This document shows, in pieces, positions 3,226 to 19,214 of a stretch of DNA of 32,000 bases; the stretch's first letter is position 1; every line of letters begins with the position of its first letter. A program made the position numbers and the translations under genes. Source of the DNA: Candidatus Omnitrophota bacterium (lineage in GTDB: Bacteria; Omnitrophota; Gorgyraeia; Zapsychrales; JANLHA01); the NCBI GenBank assembly GCA_963662715.1, contig OY759724.1, positions 2,310,001 through 2,342,000 of the forward strand, written 5' to 3'. Below the pieces are notes generated by a model. That model worked only from the letters and a program-made list of their open reading frames with translations. It ran no database searches and was not told the DNA's origin.

Positions 3226-4854
3226 ATGGCTTATCAGTTAAAAAAATTAGAGGGGTTCTCCGGACGCCCGGGGCCCTTGTTGCTCATTATTATGGACGGG
3301 GTCGGGCTTGGGAAACAGGATGAAAGCGATGGCGTCTTCATGGCTAAAACGCCGCATTTAGACAAACTTTTTAAGAGCGAACTTTATACGACGCTGCAGG
3401 CCCATGGGACGGCTGTCGGTATGCCGTCTGACGAAGATATGGGGAACAGTGAAGTGGGGCACAATGCCCTGGGGGCGGGACGGATTTTTGCCCAGGGAGC
3501 CGCTCTTGTTAACCAATCTATCTCATCCGGAAATATTTTCAAGACGGACACGTGGGCCGCTTTGGTCAGCCGGGCCAAGAAGGGGCAGCAGAGTTTTCAT
3601 TTGATCGGCTTGCTTTCGGACGGTAATGTCCATTCGCATATTCAGCACGTGTTGGCTTTGTTGACTCGTCTTGCGGAAGAAGGGGTCAAGACTGTCCGGC
3701 TGCATGCGCTTTTGGACGGGCGGGATGTGTATGAAAAATCAGCCCTGACATACATCGACAAGACGGAAGAGCATTTAAAACAGTTAAATGAGAGGTATGG
3801 GGCCGATTACCGAATCGCCTCTGGCGGCGGACGCATGGTGACGACCATGGACCGCTACAATGCGGACTGGACGGTTGTTAAGCGTGGCTGGGATGCTCAT
3901 GTCCTCGGGAAGGCCCGGTTATTCTCCTCCGCTCGGGAGGCTGTTTCAACGTACTATGAAGAAGACCCCGGCAGCACCGATCAATATCTCGATGCCTTCG
4001 TCATCGCCGAGGAAGGCCGGCCGGTCGGAACCATTCAAGACGGGGATTCTGTGGTGTTTTATAATTTCCGGGGAGACAGGGCCATTGAGTTGTCCCGCGC
4101 TTTTGATGAAAAGGATTTTAAAGAGTTTGATCGGGAAAGATGTCCGGATGTCCTTTATGCCGGGATGATGGAATACGACGGGGATCTTCATATCCCTAAG
4201 CATTATTTGGTGAACCCCCCGGAGATTGACCGGCCGATCAGCGTGTATCTCTGTGACAGCGGCGTGACCTCGTTTGCGATTTCGGAAACTCAAAAGTTCG
4301 GACACGTGACGTACTTTTGGAACGGCAACAACTCCGGTTACATTAATGAGAACATGGAAAAGTACGATGAAGTCCCGTCCGATAAGGTCCGTTTTGACAC
4401 AGCCCCGAAGATGAAAGCCTGCGAAATAACGGATTTGACGATTCAGTACCTGCGTAGCGGTCGGTATAAATTCGGCCGTATTAATTTTGCCAACGGAGAT
4501 ATGGTCGGGCATACCGGTATCCCTTCAGCTATTATCACGGCGGTGGAAACGGTTGATGAATGTGTGGGGAGGCTGATCGATGTTGTTGCGGAGCTGTCCG
4601 GGATTGTTGTCATAACCGCTGATCATGGGAACGCCGATGAAATGTTTACGGTAAAGAAGGGACAAAAAAGCGTCAGCACAGCGCATTCTCTTAATCGGGT
4701 CCCTTTTGTAATTGTTGACAAAAACTTTAAAAATGAATATAATATAGCTGAACCATCTAAGTTCGGCTTGTCTAACGTGGCGGCAACTTTGCTGAATTTG
4801 CTTGGCTACGAGAAACCGGAAGATTATAATTCTTCACTTATTACATTTAAGTAA
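3226..4854 (+). CDS. gpmI: 2,3-bisphosphoglycerate-independent phosphoglycerate mutase
   Basis: iPGM signatures: IIMDGVGLG, the catalytic-Ser motif MGNSEVGHNALGAGR, DGNVHSH, DGRD and ITADHGNADEM. The ATG at 3226 is preceded by AAGGGA. The TTG at 3208 in the ORF track is less likely. Confidence 0.93.
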   Translation: MAYQLKKLEGFSGRPGPLLLIIMDGVGLGKQDESDGVFMAKTPHLDKLFKSELYTTLQAHGTAVGMPSDEDMGNSEVGHNALGAGRIFAQGAALVNQSISSGNIFKTDTWAALVSRAKKGQQSFHLIGLLSDGNVHSHIQHVLALLTRLAEEGVKTVRLHALLDGRDVYEKSALTYIDKTEEHLKQLNERYGADYRIASGGGRMVTTMDRYNADWTVVKRGWDAHVLGKARLFSSAREAVSTYYEEDPGSTDQYLDAFVIAEEGRPVGTIQDGDSVVFYNFRGDRAIELSRAFDEKDFKEFDRERCPDVLYAGMMEYDGDLHIPKHYLVNPPEIDRPISVYLCDSGVTSFAISETQKFGHVTYFWNGNNSGYINENMEKYDEVPSDKVRFDTAPKMKACEITDLTIQYLRSGRYKFGRINFANGDMVGHTGIPSAIITAVETVDECVGRLIDVVAELSGIVVITADHGNADEMFTVKKGQKSVSTAHSLNRVPFVIVDKNFKNEYNIAEPSKFGLSNVAATLLNLLGYEKPEDYNSSLITFK

Positions 4855-4936
4855 CGTTATGAGATACGAGTTAATTGAGAGATGGTTGGGCGGCTTATGA
4901 AATCCATTTTCCCCTATTTTCTTCTGAATTTTCTAA

Positions 4937-4970
4937 TCCCATACCAAAAATGAGAGGTATGGGATTTTTT
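4937..4970 (+). terminator. Rho-independent terminator after gpmI
   Basis: Stem TCCCATACC (4937-4945) pairs with GGTATGGGA (4956-4964), with a 10-nt loop and a T6 run at 4965-4970. Confidence 0.75.
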
Positions 4971-5240
4971 ATTATATATGATTTTGGGGGGGAGAAGAGG
5001 TCTTAGAGTGTTTTTTGCTGTTAAAGTTGCTAAAATGTATCTCTTTTTCTCTGCTGTGTTTTTCTTTTGTAGTGCAATCACAATGAAAAATTTGCGGCAA
5101 ACCATTATGTCCGCTATAGCTTATATTGATTGAACCTGAGTAATGGTTTGTAAAACTTTGTGCGCTAAAAATACTTTTGTCCCACACAATGAGTTTTTTA
5201 GTGGTGAATTTTTGCGTGCGCTTTCAGTCAATAGAAGGGG

Positions 5241-5269
5241 TTGATATTGATTGACGTATATGATATTAT
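5241..5269 (+). promoter_or_regulatory. Candidate extended -10 promoter of the giant repeat gene
   Basis: TTGATA (5241-5246), a 17-nt spacer, then TATTAT (5264-5269) with TGA immediately upstream (a TGn extended -10). The region is very AT-rich, so alternative hexamers exist. Confidence 0.3.
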
Positions 5270-5348
5270 TTATAAGTCTAAAAATATATAATAAAGATTA
5301 GGTCTTTTGTATATAGATATCCTCAGTAATCCAAAAAGGAGTGGTCAA

Positions 5349-5447
5349 ATGTTCCAAATAATTCCTAAAACGGCTCAAAAAATGTTTTCACTAGTTCTTG
5401 TAGGGATTTTCTGTGTTTATCTTGTTTTCCCTCCAATCCTAAGCGCA
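5349..5447 (+). other. Sec-type signal peptide of the giant protein
   Basis: MFQIIPKTAQK (basic n-region), MFSLVLVGIFCVYLVF (hydrophobic core), then PPILSA followed by E (an AXA-like cleavage context). Judged by eye, not run through a predictor. Confidence 0.6.
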
Positions 5448-8400
5448 GAGCTATTGAAATTGCCCGATCCGGGAACAACAATTTCTTTTAGCCCGGGATA
5501 TCAGCCCGCTGTCATTGCCGGGGTGGTCGTGAATTCGGAAGATCCCCTTATGTTTGATTTCATCATTGACAGGGGGGATTCCGGTCTTCTGGGCGCGGAA
5601 TTGGAAGCAGAAACGAACAAGCTTGTAAAATATTTTCTTGCTGCTTTGACAATCCCTGAGGAAGAAGTCTGGGTGAACCTTTCTCCCTATGAAAGAGAGT
5701 TGATGATTCCGTTTGCTTTGGGTATTACGGAAATGGGAAAGGATATGTTGGCCCAGGATTATTTGCTAAAACAGATGACCGCATCCTTGACACACCCGGA
5801 ATCAGAAGTGGGGAAGAAATTCTGGGAAAAAGTTTATGAGAAAGCCTATAAACTTTACGGAACCACGGAGATCCCGATTAATACCTTCAGTAAAGTCTGG
5901 ATTGTCCCGAACAATGCTGTGGTTTTGGAAAAAGACGGAACGGCTTACGTGGTTGAGAATACCTTGAAAGTCATGTTGGAAGAGGATTATTTGGCTATTG
6001 AAAAGAACTTGGATAATACAGAAATTGGAACAGACCAGCTTACTAAGGAACGTGTGGAATATATAAATAATTTGTCGGCAGAGATTGTTAACGAAATTAT
6101 TTTGCCCGAGTTATCCACAGAAGTGAATGAGGGCAAAAATTTTGGATTAGTCCGGCAGGTATATAATTCCGTCATCCTTGCGACATGGTATAAAGACCGG
6201 CTAAAAGAAACACTGTTAGGCCGGATTTATGTAGATCGAAACAAGGTGGCGGGGGTTGATGTCTCAGACAAGACGATAAAAGAAAAGATTTATACCCAGT
6301 ACATGGATGCGCTTCGTCAAGGTGTTTACAACTTTATTAAGGAAGATGTGGCTCCGGGAACGAACGAAACCCTTCAGCGAAGATATTTTTCCGGAGGGAT
6401 CGAGTTTGCTATTAATGTTAATAAGACCAGCAGTCCGATTCTTTTGGGGCAGAAAGCTCAAAAGAATTGGAAATCCATGAGTTCTGGAATTGCTACACGG
6501 GAAAAATCTTTTGATAATGTGGAGCGATATGTCAGAGCCAGGGTTGGCCTGAATACGACATTGCCTATTTTAACCAATACTCAGCATGTCGCTAAAACTG
6601 TTTTGCCGAATTTGAGTTATTCAGCTGTTAATGCGGCTATAGATAACTCAACCAACATCCCGGATGACAGAAAATTAGAGTTAAAGAAAGAATTTATGGC
6701 GGCTTCTCAGGAATCCAAGAGAACCGGACGCCCGATTCAGTTAAGCCAGGTGCCGGAAATGGTGAAGGAAATTGAGTTGGGAGGAGCGAGCGGCCTGACC
6801 GAAAATTTGACCGGGGTGTTGCCTACGGTAAGTCAGGATGTCGCGGTCAGTCAAGTTGACTTTGCAAAGAATGTCGTCCCTAACCTTTCGGTTCCTATGG
6901 TCAATCAAATGATTGATCAGTCCAATCTTTCAGATAATGAAAGAGTTGTTTTAAAGGCCGAATTTAAACAAGCCAGTGATATTGCTTTGGCGGAAAAGAA
7001 ACCGATACGTCTCAGTTCTCTTCCTCAATTAGTTGGGGCTTTGGACAATATAGAAAGCGGTCTGGCTGTAGAAATAAGCCGGTCCCTGCCATCTCAGAGG
7101 CCCGATGTTGTTCAGACTCAGGTGAATGTGGCCAAACAGATCATTCCGAGCGTGAGTTCCCCGCTTATTACGCAAGCGATCGAAGGATCGAATATATCGC
7201 CGGAGAGAAAAGACACGTTAAGAAAAGAGGTGCAGGCCGAGATCAGCAAAGCCACCAGCGAGAACCGGCCGATCTCATTAGCGAACATTCCGAACCTGGC
7301 GATGGACTTAGAGAAGCCGGAGACGGGGATCGCCGCCGGCATCAGCCGTGTCCTGCCGACGTCCAGTCCGCTCGTGGAAACGGAACAGGTCTCGATGGCC
7401 AAACAGATGATCCCGAGCGTGACTCCGCAGGTTATCACGCAGGCGATCACAGGCTCGAACGTAGCACCGGAGAGGAAGGATACGTTAAGAAGAGAAGTAC
7501 AGGCCGAGGTGAGCAGAGCGACCAGCGAGAACCGGCCGATCTCATTAGCGAATATTCCGAATCTGGCGATGGATTTGGAGAAACCGGAAACAGGGATCGC
7601 TGCCGGCATCAGCCGTGTAGCGCCGAAAGCAGGCCCTGAGATGAAGGCCGGTGAAGTGAATATAGCGAAACAGATCCTGCCTAGCCTGACGGAAGCGGTT
7701 ATCACGCAGGCGATCACAGGCTCGAACGTAGCACCGGAGAGGAAGGACACGTTAAGGAGAGAAGTCGCGGCCGAGGTGAGCAGAGCGACCAGCGAGAACC
7801 GGCCGGTCTCATTAGCGAATATTCCGAACCTGGCGATGGATTTAGAGAAACCGGAAACGGGAATCGCCGCTGGAATCAGCCGTGTTTTACCTGCCTCCAG
7901 CCCTCTCGTAGAAACGGAACAGGTCACGATGGCCAAGCAGATCATTCCGAGCGTGACTCCGCAGGTTATCACGCAGGCGATCGAAGGCTCGAACGTAGCG
8001 CCAGAGAGAAAAGACACGTTAAGGAGAGAAGTGCAGGCCGAGGTGAGCAGAGCGACCAGCGAGAACCGGCCGATCTCATTAGCGAACATCCCGAATCTGG
8101 CGATGGATTTGGAGAAACCGGAAACAGGGATCGCCGCCGGCATCAGCCAGGTAGCGCCGTCCGCAAGACCTGATACAGCAGCTGCTGAAGTGAATATAGC
8201 GAAACAGATCCTGCCGAGCGTGACTCCGCAGATTATCACACAGGCGATTGAAGGCTCGAATGTCGCACCGGAGAGAAAGGATACGTTAAGAAGAGAAGTG
8301 GCGGCCGAGGTGAGCAAAGCAACCAGCGAGAACCGGCCGGTCTCATTAACGAACATCCCGAATCTGGCGATGGATTTGGAGAAACCGGAAACAGGTATCG

Positions 8401-11400
8401 CCGCCGGTATCAGCCGTGTTTTACCCGCGTCCAGTCCGCTCGTAGAGACGGAACAGGTCACGATGGCCAAACAGATTATTCCAAGTGTGACTCCGCAGGT
8501 TATCACGCAGGCGATCGAAGGCTCGAACGTAGCGCCAGAGAGAAAAGACACGTTAAGGAGAGAAGTACAGGCCGAGGTGAGCAGAGCAACCAGCGAGAAC
8601 CGGCCAATCTCATTAGCGAACATTCCGAATTTGGCGATGGATTTGGAGAAACCGGAGACGGGGATAGCCGCCGGCATCAGCCGGGTGGCTCCGAAAGCAG
8701 GCCCTGAAATGAAGGCCGGTGAAGTGAATATAGCGAAACAGATCCTGCCCAGCCTGACGGAAGCGGTTATCACGCAGGCGATCACAGGCTCAAACGTAGC
8801 GCCGGAGAGAAAAGACACGTTAAGGAGAGAAGTAGCGGCCGAGGTGAGCAAAGCGACCAGCGAGAACCGGCCGATTTCATTAGCGAATATTCCGAATCTG
8901 ACGATGGATTTGGAGAAACCGGAGACAGGTATCGCCGCCGGTATCAGCCGTGTTCTGCCGACGTCCAGTCCGCTCGTAGAGACGGAACAGGTCACGATGG
9001 CCAAGAATATCATCCCGAGCGTGAGTCCGCAGGTTATCACACAGGCGATTGAAACCGCGAATGTGACACCGCAAAGAAAAGACACGTTAAGGAGAGAAGT
9101 GGCGGCCGAGGTGAGCAAAGCAACCAGCGAGAACCGGCCGGTCTCATTAGCGAACATCCCGAATCTGACCATGGATTTGGAGAAACCGGAAACAGGGATC
9201 GCCGCCGGCATCAGCCGTGTTTTACCCGCGTCCAGTCCGCTCGTAGAGACGGAACAGGTAGCGATGGCCAAACAGATCATTCCGAGCGTGACTCCGCAGG
9301 TTATCACGCAGGCGATCGAAGGCTCGAACGTAGCGCCGGAGAGAAAGGACACGTTAAGGAGAGAAGTGGCGGCTGAGGTGAGCAGAGCGACCAGCGAAAA
9401 CCGGCCGGTCTCATTAGCGAACATCCCGAACCTGGCGATGGATTTAGAGAAACCGGAGACGGGGATCGCCGCCGGAATCAGCCGGGTAGCGCCGAAAGCA
9501 GGCCCGGTGACAGCAGCCGGTGAAGTGAATATAGCAAAACAGATCCTGCCCAGCCTGACGGAAGCGGTAATTACTCAGGCGATCTCAGGATCGAACGTAG
9601 CGCCGCAGAGAAAAGACACGTTAAGGAGAGAAGTGGCGGCCGAGGTGAGCAAAGCGACCAGCGAGAACCGGCCGATCTCATTAGCGAATATTCCGAATTT
9701 GACGATGGATTTAGAGAAACCGGAAACGGGGATAGCCGCCGGCATCAGCCGTGTTATGCCGACGTCCAGTCCGCTCGTAGAGACGGAACAGATCACGATG
9801 GCCAAACAGATCATTCCAAGCGTGACTCCGCAGGTTATCACGCAGGCGATCGAAGGCTCGAACGTAGCACCACAGAGAAAGGACACGTTAAGGAGAGAAG
9901 TAGCGGCCGAGGTGAGCAGAGCAACCAGCGAGAACCGGCCGGTCTCATTAGCGAATATTCCGAATTTGGCGATGGATTTAGAGAAGCCGGAAACGGGAAT
10001 AGCCGCCGGAATCAGCCGTGTTCTGCCAACGTCCAGTCCGCTCGTAGAGACGGAACAGGTCACGATGGCCAAGCAGATCATTCCGAGCGTGACTCCGCAG
10101 GTTATCACGCAGGCGATCGAAGGCTCGAACGTAGCGCCGGAAAGAAAAGACACGTTAAGGAGAGAAGTAGCGGCCGAGGTGAGCAGAGCGACCAGCGAGA
10201 ACCGGCCGGTCTCATTAGCGAACATCCCGAATCTGGCGATGGATCTGGAGAAACCGGAGACGGGGATTGCCGCCGGGATCAGCCGGGTAGCGCCGTCCGC
10301 CAGACCTGACACGGCAGCCGGTGAAGTGAATATAGCAAAACAAATCCTGCCCAGCCTGACGGAAGCGGTAATCACGCAGGCGATTTCAGGCTCGAATGTT
10401 GCGCCGGAGAGAAAAGACACGTTAAGAAGAGAAGTCGCGGCCGAGGTGAGCAAAGCGACCAGCGAGAACCGGCCGGTCTCATTAGCGAATATTCCGAACC
10501 TGGCGATGGATTTAGAGAAACCGGAGACGGGGATAGCCGCCGGCATCAGCCGGGTTTTACCTGCGTCCAGTCCGCTCGTAGCGACGGAACAGATCACGAT
10601 GGCCAAACAGATCATTCCGAGCGTGAGTCCGCAGGTTATCACGCAGGCGATCGAAGGCTCGAACATAGCGCCGGAGAGAAAGGACACGTTAAGGAGAGAA
10701 GTCGCGGCCGAGGTGAGCAAAGCGACCAGCGAGAACCGGCCGGTCTCATTAGCGAACATCCCGAATCTGGCGATGGATCTGGAGAAACCGGAGACGGGGA
10801 TAGCCGCCGGCATCAGCCGTGTTATGCCGACGTCCAGTCCGCTCGTAGAGACGGAACAGATCACGATGGCCAAACAGATCATTCCAAGCGTGACTCCGCA
10901 GGTTATCACGCAGGCGATCGAAGGCTCGAACGTAGCACCACAGAGAAAGGACACGTTAAGGAGAGAAGTAGCGGCCGAGGTGAGCAGAGCGACCAGCGAG
11001 AACCGGCCGATCTCATTAGCGAACGTCCCGAATCTGGCGATGGATTTAGAGAAACCGGAGACGGGGATCGCCGCCGGAATCAGCCGGGTAGCTCCGAAAG
11101 CAGGCCCGGTGACAGCAGCCGGTGAAGTGAATATAGCAAAACAGATCCTGCCCAGCCTGACGGAAGCGGTAATTACGCAGACGATTTCAGGCTCGAACGT
11201 AGCACCGGAGAGAAAAGACACGTTAAGGAGAGAAGTGGCGGCCGAGGTGAGCAAAGCGACCAGCGAGAACCGGCCGATCTCATTAGCGAACATCCCGAAT
11301 CTGGTGATGGATTTGGAGAAACCGGAGACGGGGATCGCCGCCGGAATCAGCCGTGTTCTGCCGACGTCCAGTCCGCTCGTAGAGACGGAACAGGTCACGA

Positions 11401-14400
11401 TGGCCAAGCAGATCATTCCGAGCGTGAGTCCGCAGATTATCACGCAGGCGATCTCGGGCTCGAATGTTGCACCACAGAGAAAAGACACGTTAAGGAGAGA
11501 AGTGGCGGCCGAGGTGAGCAGAGCGACCAGCGAGAACCGGCCGATCTCACTAGCGAACATCCCGAATCTGGCGATGGATCTGGAGAAACCGGAGACGGGG
11601 ATAGCCGCCGGAATCAGCCGTGTTATGCCGACATCCAGTCCGCTCGTAGAGACGGAACAGGTAGCGATGGCCAAACAGATCATTCCGAGCGTGACTCCGC
11701 AGATTATCACTCAGGCGATCGAAGGCTCGAACGTAGCACCACAGAGAAAGGACACGTTAAGGAGAGAAGTACAGGCCGAGGTGAGCAGAGCAACCAGCGA
11801 GAACCGGCCGATTTCATTAGCGAACATCCCGAATCTGGCGATGGATTTAGAGAAACCGGAAACGGGGATAGCTGCCGGGATCAGCCGGATAGCTCCGAAA
11901 GCAGGCCCTGAGACGAAAGCCGGGGAAGTGAATATAGCAAAACAAATCCTGCCCAGCCTGACGGAAGCGGTTATCACGCAGGCGATTTCAGGCTCGAACG
12001 TAGCGCCGGAAAGAAAGGACACGTTAAGGAGAGAAGTACAGGCCGAGGTGAGCAGAGCGACCAGCGAGAACCGGCCGATCTCATTAGCGAACATCCCGAA
12101 TCTGGCGATGGATTTGGAGAAACCGGAAACAGGGATCGCCGCCGGAATCAGCCGTGTTATGCCGACGTCCAGTCCGCTCGTAGAGACGGAACAGGTCACG
12201 ATGGCCAAACAGATCATTCCGAGCGTGACTCCGCAGGTTATCACGCAGGCGATCGAAGGCTCGAACGTAGCGCCGGAAAGAAAGGATACGTTAAGGAGAG
12301 AGGTGCAGGCCGAGGTGAGCAGAGCGACCAGCGAGAACCGGCCGGTCTCATTAGCGAACATCCCGAATCTGGCGATGGATTTGGAGAAACCGGAGACGGG
12401 GATCGCCGCCGGCATCAGCCGGGTGGCGCCGTCCGCAAGACCAGATACAGCAGCTGCTGAAGTGAATATAGCAAAACAGATTCTGCCCAGCCTGACGGAA
12501 GCCGTGATTACGCAGGCGATCTCAGGCTCGAACGTTGCACCACAGAGAAAAGACACGTTAAGGAGAGAAGTACAGGCCGAGGTGAGTAAAGCGACCAGCG
12601 AGAACCGGCCGATCTCATTAGCGAACATCCCGAATCTGGCGATGGATTTAGAGAAACCGGAAACGGGGATCGCCGCCGGCATCAGCCGTGTTATGCCGAC
12701 GTCCAGTCCGCTCGTAGAGACGGAACAGGTCACGATGGCCAAACAGATCATTCCAAGCGTGACTCCGCAGATTATCACGCAGGCGATCGAAGGCTCGAAC
12801 GTAGCGCCGGAAAGAAAAGACACGTTAAGGAGAGAAGTGGCGGCCGAGGTGAGCAAAGCGACCAGCGAGAACCGGCCGGTCTCATTAGCGAACATCCCGA
12901 ACCTGGCGATGGATCTGGAGAAACCAGAAACAGGGATCGCTGCCGGCATCAGCCGGGTAGCGCCGAAAGCAGGCCCTGAGATGAAAGCCGGTGAAGTGAA
13001 TATAGCAAAACAGATCCTGCCCAGCCTGACGGAAGCGGTAATTACGCAGGCGATTTCAGGCTCGAATGTTGCGCCGGAGAGAAAAGACACGTTAAGAAGA
13101 GAAGTACAGGCCGAGGTGAGCAAAGCGACCAGCGAGAACCGGCCGATCTCATTAGCGAACATCCCGAACCTGGCGATGGATTTAGAGAAACCGGAGACAG
13201 GGATCGCCGCCGGCATCAGCCGTGTTCTGCCGACGTCCAGTCCGCTCGTAGAGACGGAGCAGGTCACGGTGGCCAAACAGATCATTCCGAGCGTGAGTCC
13301 GCAGATTATCACGCAGGCGATCGAAGGCTCGAACGTAGCACCACAGAGAAAAGACACGTTAAGGAGAGAAGTGGCGGCCGAGGTGAGCAAAGCGACCAGC
13401 GAGAACCGGCCGATCTCATTAGCGAACGTCCCGAATCTGGCGATGGATTTAGAGAAACCGGAGACGGGGATCGCCGCCGGCATCAGCCGGGTCGTCCCTG
13501 CATTAACTTCTCAAGTTTCTTCAGAACGTATTTCAACTGCACAGGATATGGTTCCTAACCTCAGCCCGGCTATTATTGCAGACGCAATCAATACTGCCTC
13601 GTTGCCGGAAGCTGCTCGTCGGGAATTGCAGCAGGAATTTGAGCCTGTGAGCCGGAAAGCTTTATCAGAAGGCAAAACGGTTGAGATGAAGAATTTGCCT
13701 AAATTGGCAGCTGCTATTAATAATCCCACAACGAGGATAGCTGAAAATTTATTGAGAAATGTTCCTGCAACACCTTCGGTGGAAACTCAGGCGATGCAAA
13801 TTGAATCAGTTAAAGCGATCCTGCCTCAACTTTCATCACCGATAGTCGCTCAGGCGATCAGTGAATCCAATCTTTCGGAACAAGAGCAGGTCGATTTGAT
13901 CGGTAAATTTACGGTCGCAAGTAATTTGGCCGAGAAAACCGGACGTTTCGTTGACATTAATGCGATCCCCGGGCTTGTTCAGGCCATTGAAAAACCGGAT
14001 ACCGGATTAGCTCTTCAATTAGCCAAAGCCGTTCCTACCAAATTGGAATCCGCCGTGAATAAGCAGAATTTAAAAGTGAATACGCTTTCTTCTTTAGCCA
14101 ATCAGACGAGAGAGCTTGATGCTTTATTCAGAAAAGCGCCTGATATTGGAGCCAGGGAAAGAGAGCAGCTTATTCAGGAGATTCAGCAGCTCAAGAGAAC
14201 AGGCGGTCTGTCGGATATTAAGAAATTCCGTTCACAAGCATCACCGGAACTTTTAGCCCGGGTAACCAAACCTCCGATCGGCCCAGAGCTGGAAAGAGTC
14301 GGTGGTATTAATTTGAACGCCAAGCTCTTTGATTTTCAAATTAATAAGGAGGGGAAGGGCATTGATATCCCTATCGCTCTAAAAGATGGTCAGGAAATCA

Positions 14401-14525
14401 ATTTTGGCGGTCTGGAGCCGTTTGTCATCGAAGTTGTTCCGGCGACGCCAGAATCTATTCCATTCAATGAATCCAGTACTGATACAGCTGTGAAAGATGA
14501 TCCTTTGAGAATTTCGAAATACTAG
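5349..14525 (+). CDS. Giant secreted tandem-repeat protein (about 3058 aa): N-terminal conserved-looking domain, 28 x ~89-aa modules, C-terminal domain; function unknown (putative surface fibre or adhesin)
   Basis: A single uninterrupted 9.2-kb frame. AAGGAG (5336-5341) lies 7 nt upstream of the ATG at 5349. There is an N-terminal signal peptide. Degenerate flanking repeat units are conserved at protein level only in this frame. A strong terminator follows directly downstream. Confidence 0.9.
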   Translation: MFQIIPKTAQKMFSLVLVGIFCVYLVFPPILSAELLKLPDPGTTISFSPGYQPAVIAGVVVNSEDPLMFDFIIDRGDSGLLGAELEAETNKLVKYFLAALTIPEEEVWVNLSPYERELMIPFALGITEMGKDMLAQDYLLKQMTASLTHPESEVGKKFWEKVYEKAYKLYGTTEIPINTFSKVWIVPNNAVVLEKDGTAYVVENTLKVMLEEDYLAIEKNLDNTEIGTDQLTKERVEYINNLSAEIVNEIILPELSTEVNEGKNFGLVRQVYNSVILATWYKDRLKETLLGRIYVDRNKVAGVDVSDKTIKEKIYTQYMDALRQGVYNFIKEDVAPGTNETLQRRYFSGGIEFAINVNKTSSPILLGQKAQKNWKSMSSGIATREKSFDNVERYVRARVGLNTTLPILTNTQHVAKTVLPNLSYSAVNAAIDNSTNIPDDRKLELKKEFMAASQESKRTGRPIQLSQVPEMVKEIELGGASGLTENLTGVLPTVSQDVAVSQVDFAKNVVPNLSVPMVNQMIDQSNLSDNERVVLKAEFKQASDIALAEKKPIRLSSLPQLVGALDNIESGLAVEISRSLPSQRPDVVQTQVNVAKQIIPSVSSPLITQAIEGSNISPERKDTLRKEVQAEISKATSENRPISLANIPNLAMDLEKPETGIAAGISRVLPTSSPLVETEQVSMAKQMIPSVTPQVITQAITGSNVAPERKDTLRREVQAEVSRATSENRPISLANIPNLAMDLEKPETGIAAGISRVAPKAGPEMKAGEVNIAKQILPSLTEAVITQAITGSNVAPERKDTLRREVAAEVSRATSENRPVSLANIPNLAMDLEKPETGIAAGISRVLPASSPLVETEQVTMAKQIIPSVTPQVITQAIEGSNVAPERKDTLRREVQAEVSRATSENRPISLANIPNLAMDLEKPETGIAAGISQVAPSARPDTAAAEVNIAKQILPSVTPQIITQAIEGSNVAPERKDTLRREVAAEVSKATSENRPVSLTNIPNLAMDLEKPETGIAAGISRVLPASSPLVETEQVTMAKQIIPSVTPQVITQAIEGSNVAPERKDTLRREVQAEVSRATSENRPISLANIPNLAMDLEKPETGIAAGISRVAPKAGPEMKAGEVNIAKQILPSLTEAVITQAITGSNVAPERKDTLRREVAAEVSKATSENRPISLANIPNLTMDLEKPETGIAAGISRVLPTSSPLVETEQVTMAKNIIPSVSPQVITQAIETANVTPQRKDTLRREVAAEVSKATSENRPVSLANIPNLTMDLEKPETGIAAGISRVLPASSPLVETEQVAMAKQIIPSVTPQVITQAIEGSNVAPERKDTLRREVAAEVSRATSENRPVSLANIPNLAMDLEKPETGIAAGISRVAPKAGPVTAAGEVNIAKQILPSLTEAVITQAISGSNVAPQRKDTLRREVAAEVSKATSENRPISLANIPNLTMDLEKPETGIAAGISRVMPTSSPLVETEQITMAKQIIPSVTPQVITQAIEGSNVAPQRKDTLRREVAAEVSRATSENRPVSLANIPNLAMDLEKPETGIAAGISRVLPTSSPLVETEQVTMAKQIIPSVTPQVITQAIEGSNVAPERKDTLRREVAAEVSRATSENRPVSLANIPNLAMDLEKPETGIAAGISRVAPSARPDTAAGEVNIAKQILPSLTEAVITQAISGSNVAPERKDTLRREVAAEVSKATSENRPVSLANIPNLAMDLEKPETGIAAGISRVLPASSPLVATEQITMAKQIIPSVSPQVITQAIEGSNIAPERKDTLRREVAAEVSKATSENRPVSLANIPNLAMDLEKPETGIAAGISRVMPTSSPLVETEQITMAKQIIPSVTPQVITQAIEGSNVAPQRKDTLRREVAAEVSRATSENRPISLANVPNLAMDLEKPETGIAAGISRVAPKAGPVTAAGEVNIAKQILPSLTEAVITQTISGSNVAPERKDTLRREVAAEVSKATSENRPISLANIPNLVMDLEKPETGIAAGISRVLPTSSPLVETEQVTMAKQIIPSVSPQIITQAISGSNVAPQRKDTLRREVAAEVSRATSENRPISLANIPNLAMDLEKPETGIAAGISRVMPTSSPLVETEQVAMAKQIIPSVTPQIITQAIEGSNVAPQRKDTLRREVQAEVSRATSENRPISLANIPNLAMDLEKPETGIAAGISRIAPKAGPETKAGEVNIAKQILPSLTEAVITQAISGSNVAPERKDTLRREVQAEVSRATSENRPISLANIPNLAMDLEKPETGIAAGISRVMPTSSPLVETEQVTMAKQIIPSVTPQVITQAIEGSNVAPERKDTLRREVQAEVSRATSENRPVSLANIPNLAMDLEKPETGIAAGISRVAPSARPDTAAAEVNIAKQILPSLTEAVITQAISGSNVAPQRKDTLRREVQAEVSKATSENRPISLANIPNLAMDLEKPETGIAAGISRVMPTSSPLVETEQVTMAKQIIPSVTPQIITQAIEGSNVAPERKDTLRREVAAEVSKATSENRPVSLANIPNLAMDLEKPETGIAAGISRVAPKAGPEMKAGEVNIAKQILPSLTEAVITQAISGSNVAPERKDTLRREVQAEVSKATSENRPISLANIPNLAMDLEKPETGIAAGISRVLPTSSPLVETEQVTVAKQIIPSVSPQIITQAIEGSNVAPQRKDTLRREVAAEVSKATSENRPISLANVPNLAMDLEKPETGIAAGISRVVPALTSQVSSERISTAQDMVPNLSPAIIADAINTASLPEAARRELQQEFEPVSRKALSEGKTVEMKNLPKLAAAINNPTTRIAENLLRNVPATPSVETQAMQIESVKAILPQLSSPIVAQAISESNLSEQEQVDLIGKFTVASNLAEKTGRFVDINAIPGLVQAIEKPDTGLALQLAKAVPTKLESAVNKQNLKVNTLSSLANQTRELDALFRKAPDIGAREREQLIQEIQQLKRTGGLSDIKKFRSQASPELLARVTKPPIGPELERVGGINLNAKLFDFQINKEGKGIDIPIALKDGQEINFGGLEPFVIEVVPATPESIPFNESSTDTAVKDDPLRISKY
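6546..7085 (+). repeat. Two degenerate N-terminal copies (91 and 89 aa) of the 89-aa module
   Basis: They align to the core unit through shared landmarks: AK-x-[VI]-[VIL]-P-[NS]-L-S, Q/A-I-[DE]-x-S-N, a charged helix-like stretch, [RK]-P-I-x-L-S, and P-x-[LM]-V/A ... G-[LI]-A/T. Nucleotide similarity to the core units is low. Confidence 0.7.
7086..13493 (+). repeat. 24 near-identical in-frame tandem units of exactly 267 bp (89 aa)
   Basis: The motif GIAAGIS occurs 24 times in the translation at a constant 89-aa spacing. The 267-bp period was checked at nucleotide level (for example 7316 vs 7583). The unit boundaries used here give 7086 + 24 x 267 - 1 = 13493. Confidence 0.95.
13494..14030 (+). 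repeat. Two degenerate C-terminal copies (89 and 90 aa) of the module
   Basis: VPALTSQVSSERISTAQDMVPNLSPAIIADAINTASLPEAARREL... and VPATPSVETQAMQIESVKAILPQLSSPIVAQAISESNLSEQEQ... keep the same landmark spacing as the core unit, including EKPDTGLA in the last copy. Confidence 0.7.
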
Positions 14526-14549
14526 TATTCATTGACACGGTATTGAAAA

Positions 14550-14582
14550 GGCGGGAATCATGATTGATTCCCGCCTTTTTGT
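14550..14582 (+). terminator. Rho-independent terminator of the giant gene
   Basis: A perfect 10-bp stem, GGCGGGAATC (14550-14559) with GATTCCCGCC (14566-14575), a 6-nt loop, then TTTTTGTT. Confidence 0.85.
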
Positions 14583-14590
14583 TATCGCGA

Positions 14591-15145
14591 AAAAACCACG
14601 GCCATGAGGCCGTGGATGAAGCGTTTCCGAGGTCTTGGTTGCGTATGATACAATGGGTGCATGAGATATTTGAAGCAAGGACACACAGTTTACTATGCCA
14701 GATACCATATTGTCATTTGTACAAGATATAGGCGAAAGATATTGCGATGGGGTTCGGCGGAGTATGTCAAAAGATGCGTTTTGGGAGTGATGAGACGGTA
14801 TCCTGAGATCATCATTGAAAAAGTAAATACAGATTTAGATCATATGCATCTTTTGGCATCAATTCCGCCGAAGATGGCTGTAAGTCATGCAGTAAATCTG
14901 ATTAAGAGTAACACAGCAAAGCTGATGAGGCGGCGATATAAGTTTTTAGACAAGATGTATGTGAAAAAGGCAGGGATATGGTCAGCAGGGTATTTTGTGT
15001 CAACGGTTGGAGCCGACGAAGAATCGATAAAGCGATACATCGAATATCAAGGCCGGGAAGACCGAGGACAAACGCAGATAGAATTTTAGCTGCGTTTGCA
15101 CAGTCAAAATAGTTAAGAAACCACGGCCGTGAGGCCGTGGAGTTT
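14591..15145 (+). mobile_element. IS200/IS605-family insertion sequence (TnpA only), approximate ends
   Basis: A Y1 transposase ORF is bracketed by two same-orientation 20-nt hairpins: CCACGGCC-ATGA-GGCCGTGG (14596-14615) and CCACGGCC-GTGA-GGCCGTGG (15121-15140). Both are preceded by GAAA(A). This matches the subterminal LE/RE hairpin architecture of the family. Exact cleavage sites were not determined. Confidence 0.8.
14661..15089 (+). CDS. tnpA: IS200/IS605 family Y1 (HUH) transposase TnpA
   Basis: YHIVICTRYRRKIL, the HUH motif in LDHMHLL, SAGYFVSTVG, and the C-terminal IKRYIEYQ (catalytic Tyr context). At 142 aa the size is typical. Confidence 0.92.
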   Translation: MRYLKQGHTVYYARYHIVICTRYRRKILRWGSAEYVKRCVLGVMRRYPEIIIEKVNTDLDHMHLLASIPPKMAVSHAVNLIKSNTAKLMRRRYKFLDKMYVKKAGIWSAGYFVSTVGADEESIKRYIEYQGREDRGQTQIEF

Positions 15146-15409
15146 CATTGTGCCAATCATAAATGGCCAGAAAATGATTTAAAGCATTGATTTCCCCTTC
15201 AAATATCTATATAGTTTAGAAGTAAGTTTTGTTCCTGTTTGGGCCCGTTGCGAGGTTGAACATTCCCCTCTTTGCGCTATGAGTGTCCTCCTCTTGATTG
15301 AGGCGTGCCTGGTTGGGTTTTTAATAAATTCATATTTTATATGATCTCGTCGTTTTTTATCCTTTTCAATATCACGCAAAACTGTTGCGGGCTTATCATA
15401 AGAAAAGAC

Positions 15410-16180
15410 ATGACGTCTTGTTTGCATATCCCTACGGTGGCTTCCGGGATTGTCAGTGGCTTGATTCTTCTGTTCATCGTTGTTCTCCTGTTCATCATCA
15501 TATTGTTTTGTTTTTGTGTTTTTTTTGACCAGGCTGTCTTCATCCGAAAAGGGACTTTTTTCTGCGCTCCTAATCATGGAAAAAGGGTTGCTTTAACTTT
15601 TGATGACGGCCCTTCTCCGCGCTGGACTCCCCAAATATTGGATGAGTTGTCCAAAGCAGGCATCAAGGCGACTTTTTTTATGATCGGTTATCATGTGAGC
15701 AAATATCCCGAGATCGCCCGACGAGTCGCCGAAGAGGGCCATTTAATAGGGAACCACGGCTATGCGCATAGTGTGCTGTTTTATTATAAGCCTGCCGAAA
15801 TAGAAGAGGAAATCAAATACACGGAAGAAGTGATTAGACAGGTGACAGGTCAGGTGACACGATACTTCCGCCCGCCGAAAGCGTGGCTGAGACATTCCAT
15901 TAAGGATATTATCCATTCTATGGGCTACAAGGTCGTTCTGTGGTCCTTGAATTCTAAGGATTGGGTCACGTTTAACCACCGGTCTATCGTCCGTTTTATC
16001 GTAAGACGAATTAAGAATGGAGATGTTTTGTTGTTTCATGACAGCGGGAGCATTTTCGGGATAGAAGGAGGAGACCGTACTCAGACCGTGGCTACAATAC
16101 CATTATTGGTTCAAAAGTTAAAAGAAAAGGGGTATCAATTTGTTACCATTGACGAACTATTTTCTGATGAAGAATGCTAG
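15410..16180 (+). CDS. Membrane-anchored polysaccharide deacetylase (NodB homology / CE4 domain)
   Basis: NodB motifs VALTFDDGP, HLIGNHGYAH and YFRPP. A single N-terminal TM helix (VASGIVSGLILLFIVVLLFIIILFCFCVFF) is present. The start is uncertain: ATG 15410 is chosen, with GTG 15305 and ATG 15341 as alternatives. Confidence 0.82.
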   Translation: MTSCLHIPTVASGIVSGLILLFIVVLLFIIILFCFCVFFDQAVFIRKGTFFCAPNHGKRVALTFDDGPSPRWTPQILDELSKAGIKATFFMIGYHVSKYPEIARRVAEEGHLIGNHGYAHSVLFYYKPAEIEEEIKYTEEVIRQVTGQVTRYFRPPKAWLRHSIKDIIHSMGYKVVLWSLNSKDWVTFNHRSIVRFIVRRIKNGDVLLFHDSGSIFGIEGGDRTQTVATIPLLVQKLKEKGYQFVTIDELFSDEEC

Positions 16181-17861
16181 TCATTTCAAATTAAATGTTT
16201 TCTTGCTCGTCATTGGATATGTCTTTCTCATGATGGGGAACGGCCTGGTGCCGTTGACACATCCGGACGAGGTTTTTTACGCCCAGACAGCCAAAGAAAT
16301 GATAGCCCATGACAGTTGGTTAACTCCGAGGCTTTTTGACCAGCCGCAATTTGAAAAGCCGATCCTCTTTTACTGGATGACGGCTGTCTTGATGAAAGGG
16401 GCCGGTTTAAATGCTTTTACAGCACGTTTTTGGCCGGCATTTTTTGGTGTCCTGGGAATGCTTGTCGTCTATTGGATGGCGTGGATGTTCTTTGAAAGAA
16501 AAGACGTCGCTTTTTTATCCGGTCTGATCCTGGGGACATCTACTCTCCATATCTCTTTGTCCAGGGCCGTATTAACAGATATGATGTTTTCGATGTGGGT
16601 CATCTTGTCTTTGCTGTCTTTTTATTTTGCTTATCGCTATCAAAAATATAAATTTTGGGGGATCCTGAGTTGCTTTTCCTTTATGGGCTTAGCTGTCCTG
16701 ACGAAAGGTTTGTTGGGGATGTGTTTCCCGGCCGGAACTATTGGCATTTTCCTTTTATTGAAAAAAGACCTGCGGTTTTTAGCTCATAAGTCTGTGGTCA
16801 TTGGGTTCCTTATTTTTTGGGGGATTGCCCTCCCGTGGCATATCTTCATGACGGCCCGGTACGGAGATTCGTTTTATCAGGAGTACATTCATAATGTGCA
16901 TGTCCGGCGTTTGTTTGTCTCGGAACATGACAAATGCAATACCTGGTACTTTTATCTTTTAACGGTTGTGGTCGGACTTTTTCCTTGGACCTTTATTTTC
17001 GTGCCGACGGCGCGTTTCCTTTCAAAAATTCGGAAAAAGACGGAAAAAGAGAAACAGTCATTTTTATTTATTTTGTCTTGGGTGTGCGGCGTGCTTTTGT
17101 TTATTCAACCGGCTCAGTCAAAATTGGCAAGTTATGTTTTTCCGGCTTTTCCGGCCTTTGCGATATTGGCTGCCTTTTGTTTGACACTCTTTCTGGAACA
17201 AACAGGAGAGGGAGAGAGCCGGGGCGTCAAAGCTGTCCAACTGAGTATGTGCGTGTTCGGTGCGGTCCTGGCTGTGGTGAGTGTGGGGGCTATTTTTGCC
17301 AGAGCCTTTTACCGCTCTTTTGTCCCGCATCCCTTACCGGTCTACGTTATGGCTTTGCTTTTTTTATCTTTAGCTGCGGGCCTTTTCCTCTCGGCTTATC
17401 GAAAACAATTCCAAAGGATTCCGGTTCTTTTGCCCCTGTTCCCTTTATTTCTTATCTTGTCATTCCTGATGTTTCGGCCTTTAGCCGAACCCTGGATTTC
17501 GTGCCGGAAGATTGCGGATATTTTTAACAGTATCGATCAGTCCGACACAACTGTTGTCGCCAGTAAATTCTATGTCCGCGGGATAAGATTCTTCACCGAC
17601 CGGGATGTCGCGACGATTGATGTTTGGGGCAAAGGGTTTTTCAGCCCCCATCCCATTCCTTTTCTTGACACGGATAAGAAAGCCATGGATTTCTTTAAGC
17701 AGCAACCCGAGACCTACGCTATTGTTAAAGAAAATGATGTCTCAGATATCAAAAGAATCTGCCAATTAAGCGGATGTTCTGTCCGTTATATGGGGGGGCT
17801 GGGTGGCAAATATATCTTGAAGGTTCAGTCTGGAATTCCCAAGAAAGAAGTTGTAGACTAA
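16167..17861 (+). CDS. ArnT/PMT_2-like glycosyltransferase family 39 membrane protein (lipid-carrier-dependent GT-C fold)
   Basis: The N-terminal loop THPDEVFYAQTAKEMIAHDSWLTPRLFDQPQFEKPILFYWM is the classic ArnT/PMT family signature, and the rest is polytopic. The ATG at 16167 overlaps the deacetylase stop (16178-16180) by 14 nt. Confidence 0.85.
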   Translation: MKNASHFKLNVFLLVIGYVFLMMGNGLVPLTHPDEVFYAQTAKEMIAHDSWLTPRLFDQPQFEKPILFYWMTAVLMKGAGLNAFTARFWPAFFGVLGMLVVYWMAWMFFERKDVAFLSGLILGTSTLHISLSRAVLTDMMFSMWVILSLLSFYFAYRYQKYKFWGILSCFSFMGLAVLTKGLLGMCFPAGTIGIFLLLKKDLRFLAHKSVVIGFLIFWGIALPWHIFMTARYGDSFYQEYIHNVHVRRLFVSEHDKCNTWYFYLLTVVVGLFPWTFIFVPTARFLSKIRKKTEKEKQSFLFILSWVCGVLLFIQPAQSKLASYVFPAFPAFAILAAFCLTLFLEQTGEGESRGVKAVQLSMCVFGAVLAVVSVGAIFARAFYRSFVPHPLPVYVMALLFLSLAAGLFLSAYRKQFQRIPVLLPLFPLFLILSFLMFRPLAEPWISCRKIADIFNSIDQSDTTVVASKFYVRGIRFFTDRDVATIDVWGKGFFSPHPIPFLDTDKKAMDFFKQQPETYAIVKENDVSDIKRICQLSGCSVRYMGGLGGKYILKVQSGIPKKEVVD

Positions 17862-18959: not shown

Positions 18960-18960
18960 A

Positions 18961-19214
18961 AATGAGTCCCAAACTTGCGGAGCGCCAGCGAGGCAAGTTT
19001 GCTGGAGGAATTAATCCCGCTGTCCGAGGTTGGGCGGGGAATGAGTCCCAAACTTGCGGAGCGCCAGCGAGGCAAGTTTGCTGGAGGAATTAATCCCGCT
19101 GTCTGAAGTTGGGCGGGAAATGAGTCCCAAACTTGCGGAGCGCCAGCGAGGCAAGTTTGTTGGAGGAATTAATCCCGCTGTCCGAGGTTGGGCGGGAAAT
19201 GAGTCCCAAACTTA
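18961..19214. repeat. 79-bp tandem direct repeat, 3.2 copies, non-coding
   Basis: Units start at 18961, 19040, 19119 and 19198 (the last is only about 16 nt). Copies differ at 1-3 positions. Each unit holds a 9-bp perfect hairpin, CAAACTTGC-14 nt-GCAAGTTTG, and a second CCCGC-13 nt-GCGGG hairpin. A 79-bp period is not a multiple of 3. Confidence 0.9.

Follow-up and report, generated by a model that had tools for sequence, protein, structure and literature searches.

A 32,000-nucleotide stretch of DNA from a Candidatus Omnitrophota bacterium (GenBank assembly GCA_963662715.1, contig OY759724.1, positions 2,310,001 to 2,342,000; the whole stretch is called the window here) carries a gene for a large repeat protein, the centre of which is an array of 24 tandem units of 267 bp. 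The units fall by their first residues, the head, into the types X, A, K and S, which follow one another in a mirror-symmetric order that we did not find in the syntenic orthologues of the gene. On balance, this region is probably the module array of a secreted family protein that was shaped by unequal exchange, short-tract conversion and purifying selection, its unit order being a lineage-specific historical trace. The array would then make up the rod-like centre of a protein that is secreted or anchored in the envelope, and its tidy order would most likely reflect the ordinary concerted evolution of a tandem-repeat protein within one lineage.

Unit types and their order

The 24 units occupy positions 7086-13493 in phase, with no indels and no stops. 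Tandem Repeats Finder (TRF) reported a period of 267 with 23.8 copies and 82% matches, and the anchor 'AAGIS' recurs every 89 codons, 24 times. An earlier note on this DNA, made from the letters alone, had given the same 24 units over the same interval, but the array is longer than it stated: with two degenerate modules upstream (units -1 and 0) and two downstream (units 25 and 26), there are 28 tandem modules of 89 amino acids (aa). The unit order which that note had read, X A K A S A K A A K A A S A A K A A K A S A K A, is exact in the translated units. The non-A units stand at positions 3, 5, 7, 10, 13, 16, 19, 21 and 23 (spacings 2,2,3,3,3,3,2,2), and their identities read KSK KSK KSK. The switch to SLTEAV in the K and S units and the hybrid state of unit 5, in which an S head is joined to the A-type SVTPQI, were likewise seen in the translated units.

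By type, units 2-24 form a perfect palindrome. Only 1,320 of 68.6 million arrangements are palindromic, which gives p = 1.9e-5 for a random order; the value is p = 1e-3 given that non-A units are never adjacent and that A stands at both ends, and the probability of having neither adjacent non-A units nor AAA is 6e-4. The symmetry also extends to subtypes, since the outer blocks hold EMK/ETK K units and AAAE S units and the centre holds VTA K units and one AAGE S unit. These statistics are post hoc; despite this, the unit order is clearly non-random.

Per-column entropy is concentrated in residues 1-27, with the cassette reaching residue 33, in agreement with the earlier claim that variation is limited to a short head. 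The claim that the units group into types held for the heads, which split cleanly (nucleotide distance of at most 13/81 between A heads and at least 29/81 between A and K/S heads), but not for the tails, which do not group by type (p = 0.10). As DNA, the type-specific cassette is a block of ~105 bp that begins in the last two codons of the preceding unit, where the silent codons are CGT GTT ahead of A and CGG GTA/GTG ahead of K/S, and ends at about nucleotide (nt) 98 of the unit (residue 33). In the tail, the dimorphic sites 40 (E/Q), 50 (A/Q), 55 (R/K) and 63 (I/V) listed earlier are real, but the list missed residues 33 (E/S/T) and 72 (A/T/V). Residue 33 is linked to head type (p = 7e-4) and residue 55 weakly so (p = 0.036), and residues 40, 50 and 63 are independent of it. 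Unit 1 has a head (LP[ST]QRPD...) that is orthologous to the unit 1 heads of the related arrays and lies 26-43/81 nt from the other heads of the window; its tail is near the consensus of the array, 19-33/186 nt from the tails of the other units (5-28 among units 2-24).

The S type appears to derive from K, because S heads lie 0-2 nt per segment from the nearest K head from nt 22 on (in unit 5 only to nt 63). Over nt 1-21, S heads show 9-10 differences to X against 6-7 to K. For an origin of S as an X/K chimera, the signals are mixed: the amino-acid motif PSxRPD is X-like, yet the nucleotides are no closer to X.

Selection, exchange and orthologous arrays

The tail was described in the earlier note as almost invariant. 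This is true of the protein, which is ~95% identical within the array, but not of the DNA, where ~28% of synonymous sites differ, so that there has been no recent homogenisation. The proportions of synonymous and non-synonymous differences in the tails were 0.283 (pS) and 0.035 (pN), with a dN/dS of 0.10, and 39/61 polymorphic tail sites were at third codon positions. Because silent divergence of ~28% goes together with a dN/dS of ~0.10, the constancy of the tail is held by selection at the protein level. The heads are also under purifying selection within types (dN/dS 0.16-0.23). This lends no support to the earlier proposal that the head is the functionally diversified part, nor do two further results: the A head is better kept between orthologues than the tail, and the A/K/S pattern is missing from the syntenic orthologues.

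Exchange between units, also proposed earlier as gene conversion with mosaic shuffling, was supported by the pairwise homoplasy index (PHI; p = 0.003 for tails, 0.0005 for whole units) and by the four-gamete test, in which 75% of the informative pairs of tail sites are incompatible; among the dimorphic sites, almost every pair occurs in all four combinations. Single recombinants could also be picked out. Unit 5 is K/S-like at nt 22-63 and then identical to an A unit at nt 64-99, units 11 and 15 are identical over nt 1-164 and then differ at 12 sites (p = 0.003 for the tail part, nt 100-164), and K10 and K16 carry 'TAAGE' in common with their neighbour S13. Furthermore, GC content at third codon positions (GC3) was 0.67 in units 1-24, compared with 0.36-0.49 in the flanking modules (0.49 and 0.37 in units -1 and 0; 0.36 and 0.42 in units 25 and 26) and ~0.42-0.45 in the N- and C-terminal parts of the gene.

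Four syntenic loci, the window and three others (L079, L080 and L081), share the order iPGM, repeat gene, (deacetylase), PMT-like transferase, PrmA and RF-1 domain protein, with copy numbers of 24, 22, 17 and 1 central units (Table 1). For L081, a second assembly (P0137) gives equal length; its array may have been collapsed by short-read assembly or may have genuinely contracted. A step in GC3 at the array edges was present in L079 (0.54-0.73 inside vs 0.45-0.51 outside; array at 12023-17635) and in L080 (0.65-0.78 inside vs 0.40-0.47 outside). Unit 1 has a GC3 of 0.685 in the window and of 0.45 and 0.40 in L079 and L080, where it is not homogenised. In L079, GC3 within the array drops to its lowest values, 0.54 and 0.55, in the two units that have diverged most (10 and 11), as GC-biased gene conversion would predict. 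The jump of ~0.2-0.3 at the edges of three arrays is consistent with GC-biased gene conversion, though it is no proof of it.

When the unit order was compared in these related genomes, as the earlier note had suggested, it was not reproduced: L079 and L080 each contain a single K-like unit and lack S units. In L080, it is the tail (EVEKAEISREFTTAVRQ vs QAQKNEISQEFSSAVQQ), not the head, that holds the dimorphic cassette. A symmetry rule drawn from the central K-like unit in L079 (10+1+10) was rejected, as L080 shows 11+1+4. The A, X and K heads each find their reciprocal best matches in the same type across lineages, the K heads of the window doing so with the lone K-like unit of L079 and L080, and S occurs only in the window.

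Between the window and L079, protein identity was 86% in the N-terminal domain, 78-81% in units -1, 0 and 26, 54% in unit 25 and 80% at the C-terminus; it was 58% in the A heads and 35% in the A tails, and silent sites were saturated. Because the part that is most uniform within the array differs most between lineages, the units have evolved in concert. The 89-aa module was seen only in close orthologues by homologue, hidden Markov model (HMM) and profile searches. In a more distant syntenic orthologue (L002; 61% N-terminal identity), the middle region is unrelated and lacks the module.

Duplication of two or three units (534/801 bp), which the earlier note had inferred from the order, left no sign in the tails of the window. 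These periods were examined by lag-specific distance tests, the longest TRF period being 500. Over lags 1-22, the tail distance was flat; its mean was ~15.3 overall, with 14.8 for units two apart and 14.0 for units three apart. Three sites set the centre apart from the outer blocks at p = 0.007, which is not significant among the 74 sites tested, and isolation by distance was weak (p = 0.04 for A heads, p = 0.01 for K tails). As positive controls, units 15-18 and 19-22 of L079 (15500-17635) differ by 1, 7, 4 and 9 nt, and units 4-7 and 8-11 of L080 (~5560-7690) by 6, 0, 0 and 0 nt. These 4-unit (1,068-bp) higher-order duplications in L079 and L080 are very recent.

Explanations of the unit order

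In the explanation that we favour, the size of the array would shift by unequal exchange of one or several units, as seen in the relatives with 22 and 17 units and their fresh 4-unit duplications. Short-tract exchange would mix polymorphisms in the tails and within head types and probably lifts GC3, and purifying selection would keep the tail protein nearly constant while silent sites drift. Three old head versions, X, A and K, would predate the split of the lineages, and the K cassette may have been copied repeatedly in the lineage of the window, giving rise to S. The A and K/S cassettes would remain discrete because, with ~45% nucleotide difference, they should make poor substrates for homologous exchange, and both versions would be tolerated. 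The order A K A S A K A / A K A A S A A K A / A K A S A K A would then be the frozen trace of old multi-unit duplications, which later silent divergence and exchange would have wiped from the tails. By this analysis, the mirror order is most likely such a frozen trace and not a conserved design.

Several results weigh against this account. In the tails of the window, the Mantel test (r = 0.05, p = 0.26), the mirror-pair test (p = 0.34), the lag-16 block test (p = 0.72) and the comparison of outer with centre blocks (p = 0.67) were all null; the step of old multi-unit duplication is therefore drawn by analogy with the orthologues. The K/S pattern occurs in one genome only, that of the window. 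An unguided history must also yield an exact palindrome (p = 1e-3 to 2e-5), and symmetry at the level of subtypes is not an obvious product of unguided duplication. For the exchange itself, a GENECONV-like tract-length test on tails found long shared tracts to be no commoner than expected (12 pairs at p < 0.05 vs 12.7). The tail-only version was used here, and a whole-unit run test was discarded as confounded by type-specific head sites. Because this test was null, the case for exchange draws on site compatibility, a few clear recombinants and GC3; because long shared tail tracts are not in excess, the exchange would be old or short-tract. The elevated GC3 could, moreover, stem from a GC3-rich progenitor unit or from codon selection, and the lone central unit of L081 also has a GC3 of 0.67.

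A functional spacing of the K/S units, kept by selection as periodic marks on every second or third module of a helical rod, seems to us rather unlikely, although several results fit it. In an AlphaFold2 (AF2) model of four units, which has five helices per unit and a mean predicted local distance difference test (pLDDT) score of 80, confidence falls over the first 5-10 residues of units 2-4 (block means of 44-66, with values <50 only at the start of unit 3), as might be expected of linkers. On this helix and confidence layout, the variable head would take in the linker between modules, the first helix and the turn that leads to the second. In K and S units, a Gly/Lys/Ala linker would replace a Thr/Ser/Pro linker, together with a different helix-1 surface, and such marks could act as hinges, serve for cross-linking or docking, or leave gaps free of glycosylation among linkers O-glycosylated by the PMT-like transferase, the gene for which is kept as a downstream neighbour in all four syntenic loci. 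Selection on spacing would account for an order so strongly non-random, with non-A units never adjacent, and for its persistence despite mixed tails and the silent divergence noted above, which implies that the pattern has outlasted much exchange; the purifying selection on heads within types also fits. The periodicity is evidently not required for keeping the protein, however, since L079 and L080 each make do with a single K-like unit and no S, and the dimorphic cassette of L080 sits in the tail. PMT adjacency was also tried as a family-wide trait and rejected, because the gene is not beside the paralogues in 78 other loci but only beside the syntenic orthologues; a functional link between the transferase and the repeat protein is speculative. 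A bolder version, in which the mirror-symmetric K/S modules are a selected structural code on the rod, with PMT-glycosylated Thr/Ser-Pro linkers interrupted by unmodified Gly/Lys linkers that act as hinges or docking sites for episymbiotic host contact, we regard as a long shot. As a rough guide, a rod of 28 modules placed end to end would be ~100 nm long.

Misassembly, with units misordered or miscounted among near-identical repeats, is improbable. The array has exact repeats of up to 197 bp, and 2.3% of its 127-mers occur more than once; many relatives in the databases break off at the array and carry the label 'partial', L081 (with its one central unit of high GC3) is possibly collapsed, and the identical 4-unit duplicate of L080 could be artefactual too. 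The frame is nevertheless perfect over 6.4 kb with no indels, and with 97.7% of 127-mers unique and whole units 12-69 nt apart pairwise, the array should pose far fewer problems for assembly than most. A similar array, with 22 units, is part of a 584-kb contig, the name of which is suggestive, though no proof, of long-read assembly, and misassembly offers no cause for a palindromic order of types. A real set of unit types in an effectively random order, with the symmetry noticed afterwards, is scarcely credible: many other 'patterns' could have been noticed post hoc, the symmetry has no nucleotide-level correlate in the lag, mirror and block tests, and the central K-like unit of L079 (p ~0.05) is not repeated in L080, but the exact palindrome remains improbable even after conditioning on non-adjacency, and the K and S subtypes follow the same outer-versus-centre layout.

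The protein family, its surroundings and known systems

The gene is a plus-strand open reading frame (ORF) at 5307/5349-14525, one frame of ~3,058 residues; the ATG at 5349 was chosen as the start because the orthologues share the same MFQI... beginning (Table 1). In the plus frame, the variant codons of the tail are 46 synonymous:16 non-synonymous, compared with 10:52, 35:23 and 4:55 in the antisense frames. The array is also traversed by long ORFs on the minus strand (7118-9424, 9575-11710 and 11711-13483; 590-768 aa). They were rejected as genes, since they follow a stop-free frame that shares wobble positions and the synonymous to non-synonymous ratio of the plus frame is better. They end only where a stop arises in that frame, the boundary at 9575 being the TCA codon of Ser-33 in unit 10. 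Judged by eye, residues ~1-34 form a hydrophobic N-terminal signal or anchor candidate with a ...PPILSA/E site; neither an LPXTG motif nor a known anchor domain was found in the repeat protein by eye or with Pfam/NCBIfam.

Table 1. Positions of the repeat gene, its parts and its neighbours in the window, and central units of the syntenic loci.
Feature	Positions	Strand	Basis or remark
Repeat gene	5349-14525	+	3,058 codons plus stop; ORF and translation, orthologue starts, coding-strand test
Signal-peptide-like segment and conserved N-terminal domain (~350 aa)	5349-6551	+	family homology
Degenerate single-copy modules, units -1 and 0	6552-7085	+	align to unit consensus
Unit 1, type X	7086-7352	+	reciprocal best head match X-X with related arrays
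Homogenised core, units 2-24	7353-13493	+	14 A, 6 K, 3 S; mirror order about unit 13
K unit 3 (APKAGPEMKAGE)	7620-7886	+	head sequence
S unit 5 (APSARPDTAAAE), recombinant	8154-8420	+	K/S-like nt 22-63, A-type nt 64-99
K unit 7	8688-8954	+	
K unit 10, VTA variant	9489-9755	+	
S unit 13	10290-10556	+	
K unit 16, VTA variant	11091-11357	+	
K unit 19, ETK variant	11892-12158	+	
S unit 21	12426-12692	+	
K unit 23	12960-13226	+	
Degenerate single-copy modules, units 25 and 26	13494-14027	+	downstream of array
C-terminal region	14028-14522	+	80% identity to L079
C-terminal motif (~52 aa), GGINLNAKLFDF...FGGLEPFVIEV	14292-14447	+	kept at extreme C-terminus of other family members
IS200/IS605-family Y1 transposase	14661-15089		directly downstream of repeat gene; absent there in L079, L080, L081
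PMT/ArnT-like membrane glycosyltransferase gene	16140-17861	+	Pfam PMT/PMT_2; NCBIfam ArnT-like below cut-off
Central units, window			24 central units
Central units, L079/P0122			584-kb contig; 22 central units: X, 10 A-like, one K-like (91 aa), 10 A-like
Central units, L080/P0132			17 central units: X, 11 A-like, one K-like, 4 A-like
Repeat gene, L081/P0133 (GCA_017995055.1 JAGOJP010000012.1)	4502-7555		1,017 aa; one central unit; positions are those of L081

The N-terminal domain has 1,452 homologues at ~50% identity, mostly from metagenome-assembled genomes (MAGs) of Candidatus Omnitrophota and many of them truncated. At least 575 copies were confirmed by tblastn in GTDB representative genomes, with copies on several contigs of one MAG and paralogues often adjacent. 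Proteins of the family are ~750 to >3,700 aa long. Their middles are unrelated to one another, a few with repeats of their own, and by blastp the ~52-aa C-terminal motif matches 48 family proteins of other loci at their C-termini. By sequence, this appears to be a large, multi-copy, Omnitrophota-specific family with a conserved N-terminal domain, a variable middle, a conserved C-terminal motif and no annotation.

The repeat module itself is confined more narrowly. The unit HMM did not match any of 78 family loci (L001-L078), a homologue search with units returned orthologue fragments only, and a scan of metagenome contigs with three units gave no match. When 1.84 billion proteins were searched exhaustively with a profile, only the orthologues P0122 and P0001 matched strongly (E up to 1e-10), and the eight further matches were weak (E 3e-8 to 6e-4). 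No Pfam or NCBIfam model matches the N-terminal domain, the repeat module or the C-terminal region. In a check against known repeat domains, the only match was PrkA_C, which summed to 37 bits with no single stretch passing, other hits being below cut-off and unrelated; FIVAR, GA, Rib, G5, Big, HEAT and other known repeat domains were not above cut-off in the repeat protein. Nine shorter family members showed nothing in Pfam besides HEAT repeats in one. At the level of structure, neither the four-unit model nor the N-terminal domain had a match in the PDB by Foldseek at E up to 0.001, and a profile search against PDB sequences gave low-complexity matches only. The AF2 model of the N-terminal domain (5349-6569; mean pLDDT 66) has long helices and a long beta-hairpin at residues 182-211. 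The pore-forming toxins of the ClyA family (NheA, HblL1, MakA) were its top Foldseek results but are no more than a lead, being non-significant at E 0.13-2, probability <=0.13 and a TM score of ~0.12.

Elsewhere in the window, the 20 other ORFs scanned (>=100 aa) belong to housekeeping families, encode the one IS200 Y1 transposase or have no match, and none of them is a reverse transcriptase or site-specific recombinase. Cassette switching by a diversity-generating retroelement or a recombinase was therefore rejected, as no such genes were found in the window. Rfam, at the gathering threshold, found no RNA family there. An intergenic tandem repeat of 79 bp (3.2 copies, 96% identity) lies at 18960-19213 between a GGDEF gene and prmA. 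Its unit holds a hairpin with a 9-bp stem (CAAACTTGC...GCAAGTTTG), occurs nowhere else in the window, is not matched by Rfam and could be an element like a repetitive extragenic palindrome (REP) or a miniature inverted-repeat transposable element (MITE).

Omnitrophota are thought to be host-dependent nanobacteria, and given this presumed dependence, envelope proteins of the family are candidates for cell-cell contact. A pattern specific to one lineage alters no long-standing question; the family that carries it is as yet without annotation and has hundreds of copies in reference genomes. In addition, because it recurs in three lineages, the GC3 step could offer a compact natural test of whether gene conversion in bacteria is GC-biased. 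Giant proteins of Omnitrophota, of >=10,000 aa and up to 147,155 aa, are described in two bioRxiv papers by known domains such as dockerin, C39 and S8 peptidase and discoidin (10.1101/2023.11.21.568195; 10.64898/2026.06.07.730766). The repeat protein resembles them in coming from the same phylum and in being long, putatively secreted or membrane-associated and of a kind often fragmented in short-read assemblies, but it differs in its length of 3,058 aa, in having no Pfam domains and in belonging to a separate family that is multi-copy per genome.

Regular orders of subtypes are known from higher-order repeat arrays, such as primate alpha-satellite and the ice-nucleation protein with its nested 16- and 48-residue periodicities. 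The present arrays are alike in that subtypes recur in regular order and that L079 and L080 contain true 4-unit duplicates; they differ in that, in the window, units one period apart are not closer than neighbours at any lag. Tandem-repeat surface proteins of Gram-positive bacteria also evolve in concert, among them group B streptococcal alpha C/Rib, the B-repeats of staphylococcal SasG/Aap and Ebh of S. aureus. These too have long in-frame arrays of ~80-130-aa modules, there behind a signal peptide and here behind a candidate one, their units are closer within a gene than between orthologues, and copy number varies among relatives; in Ebh, as predicted here, helical-bundle modules are strung into a rod. 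Unlike them, the repeat protein has no Pfam/NCBIfam repeat similarity, no PDB fold match and no LPXTG-type motif. Furthermore, the Gram-positive arrays are usually near-identical as DNA, whereas here silent divergence is ~28% and two discrete head cassettes stand in regular order, and the host phylum of the window has a different envelope.

The identity of polyubiquitin units was reportedly read by Nei, Rogozin and Piontkivska in 2000 as strong purifying selection and not as pure homogenisation. The array is similar in this respect, with a 56-62-aa tail that is nearly invariant over 23 units despite a 28% silent difference and a dN/dS of ~0.1. Ubiquitin is conserved across eukaryotes, however, whereas the consensus of the window array differs by 65% from that of close orthologues, and its polymorphisms are shuffled among units. 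Because of this difference and this shuffling, concerted change and turnover would act here as well, beyond selection of the polyubiquitin kind. The regular order of subtypes may serve as a clean, fully resolved example of a bacterial repeat array under homogenisation, selective constraint and partition into non-exchanging cassettes at once.

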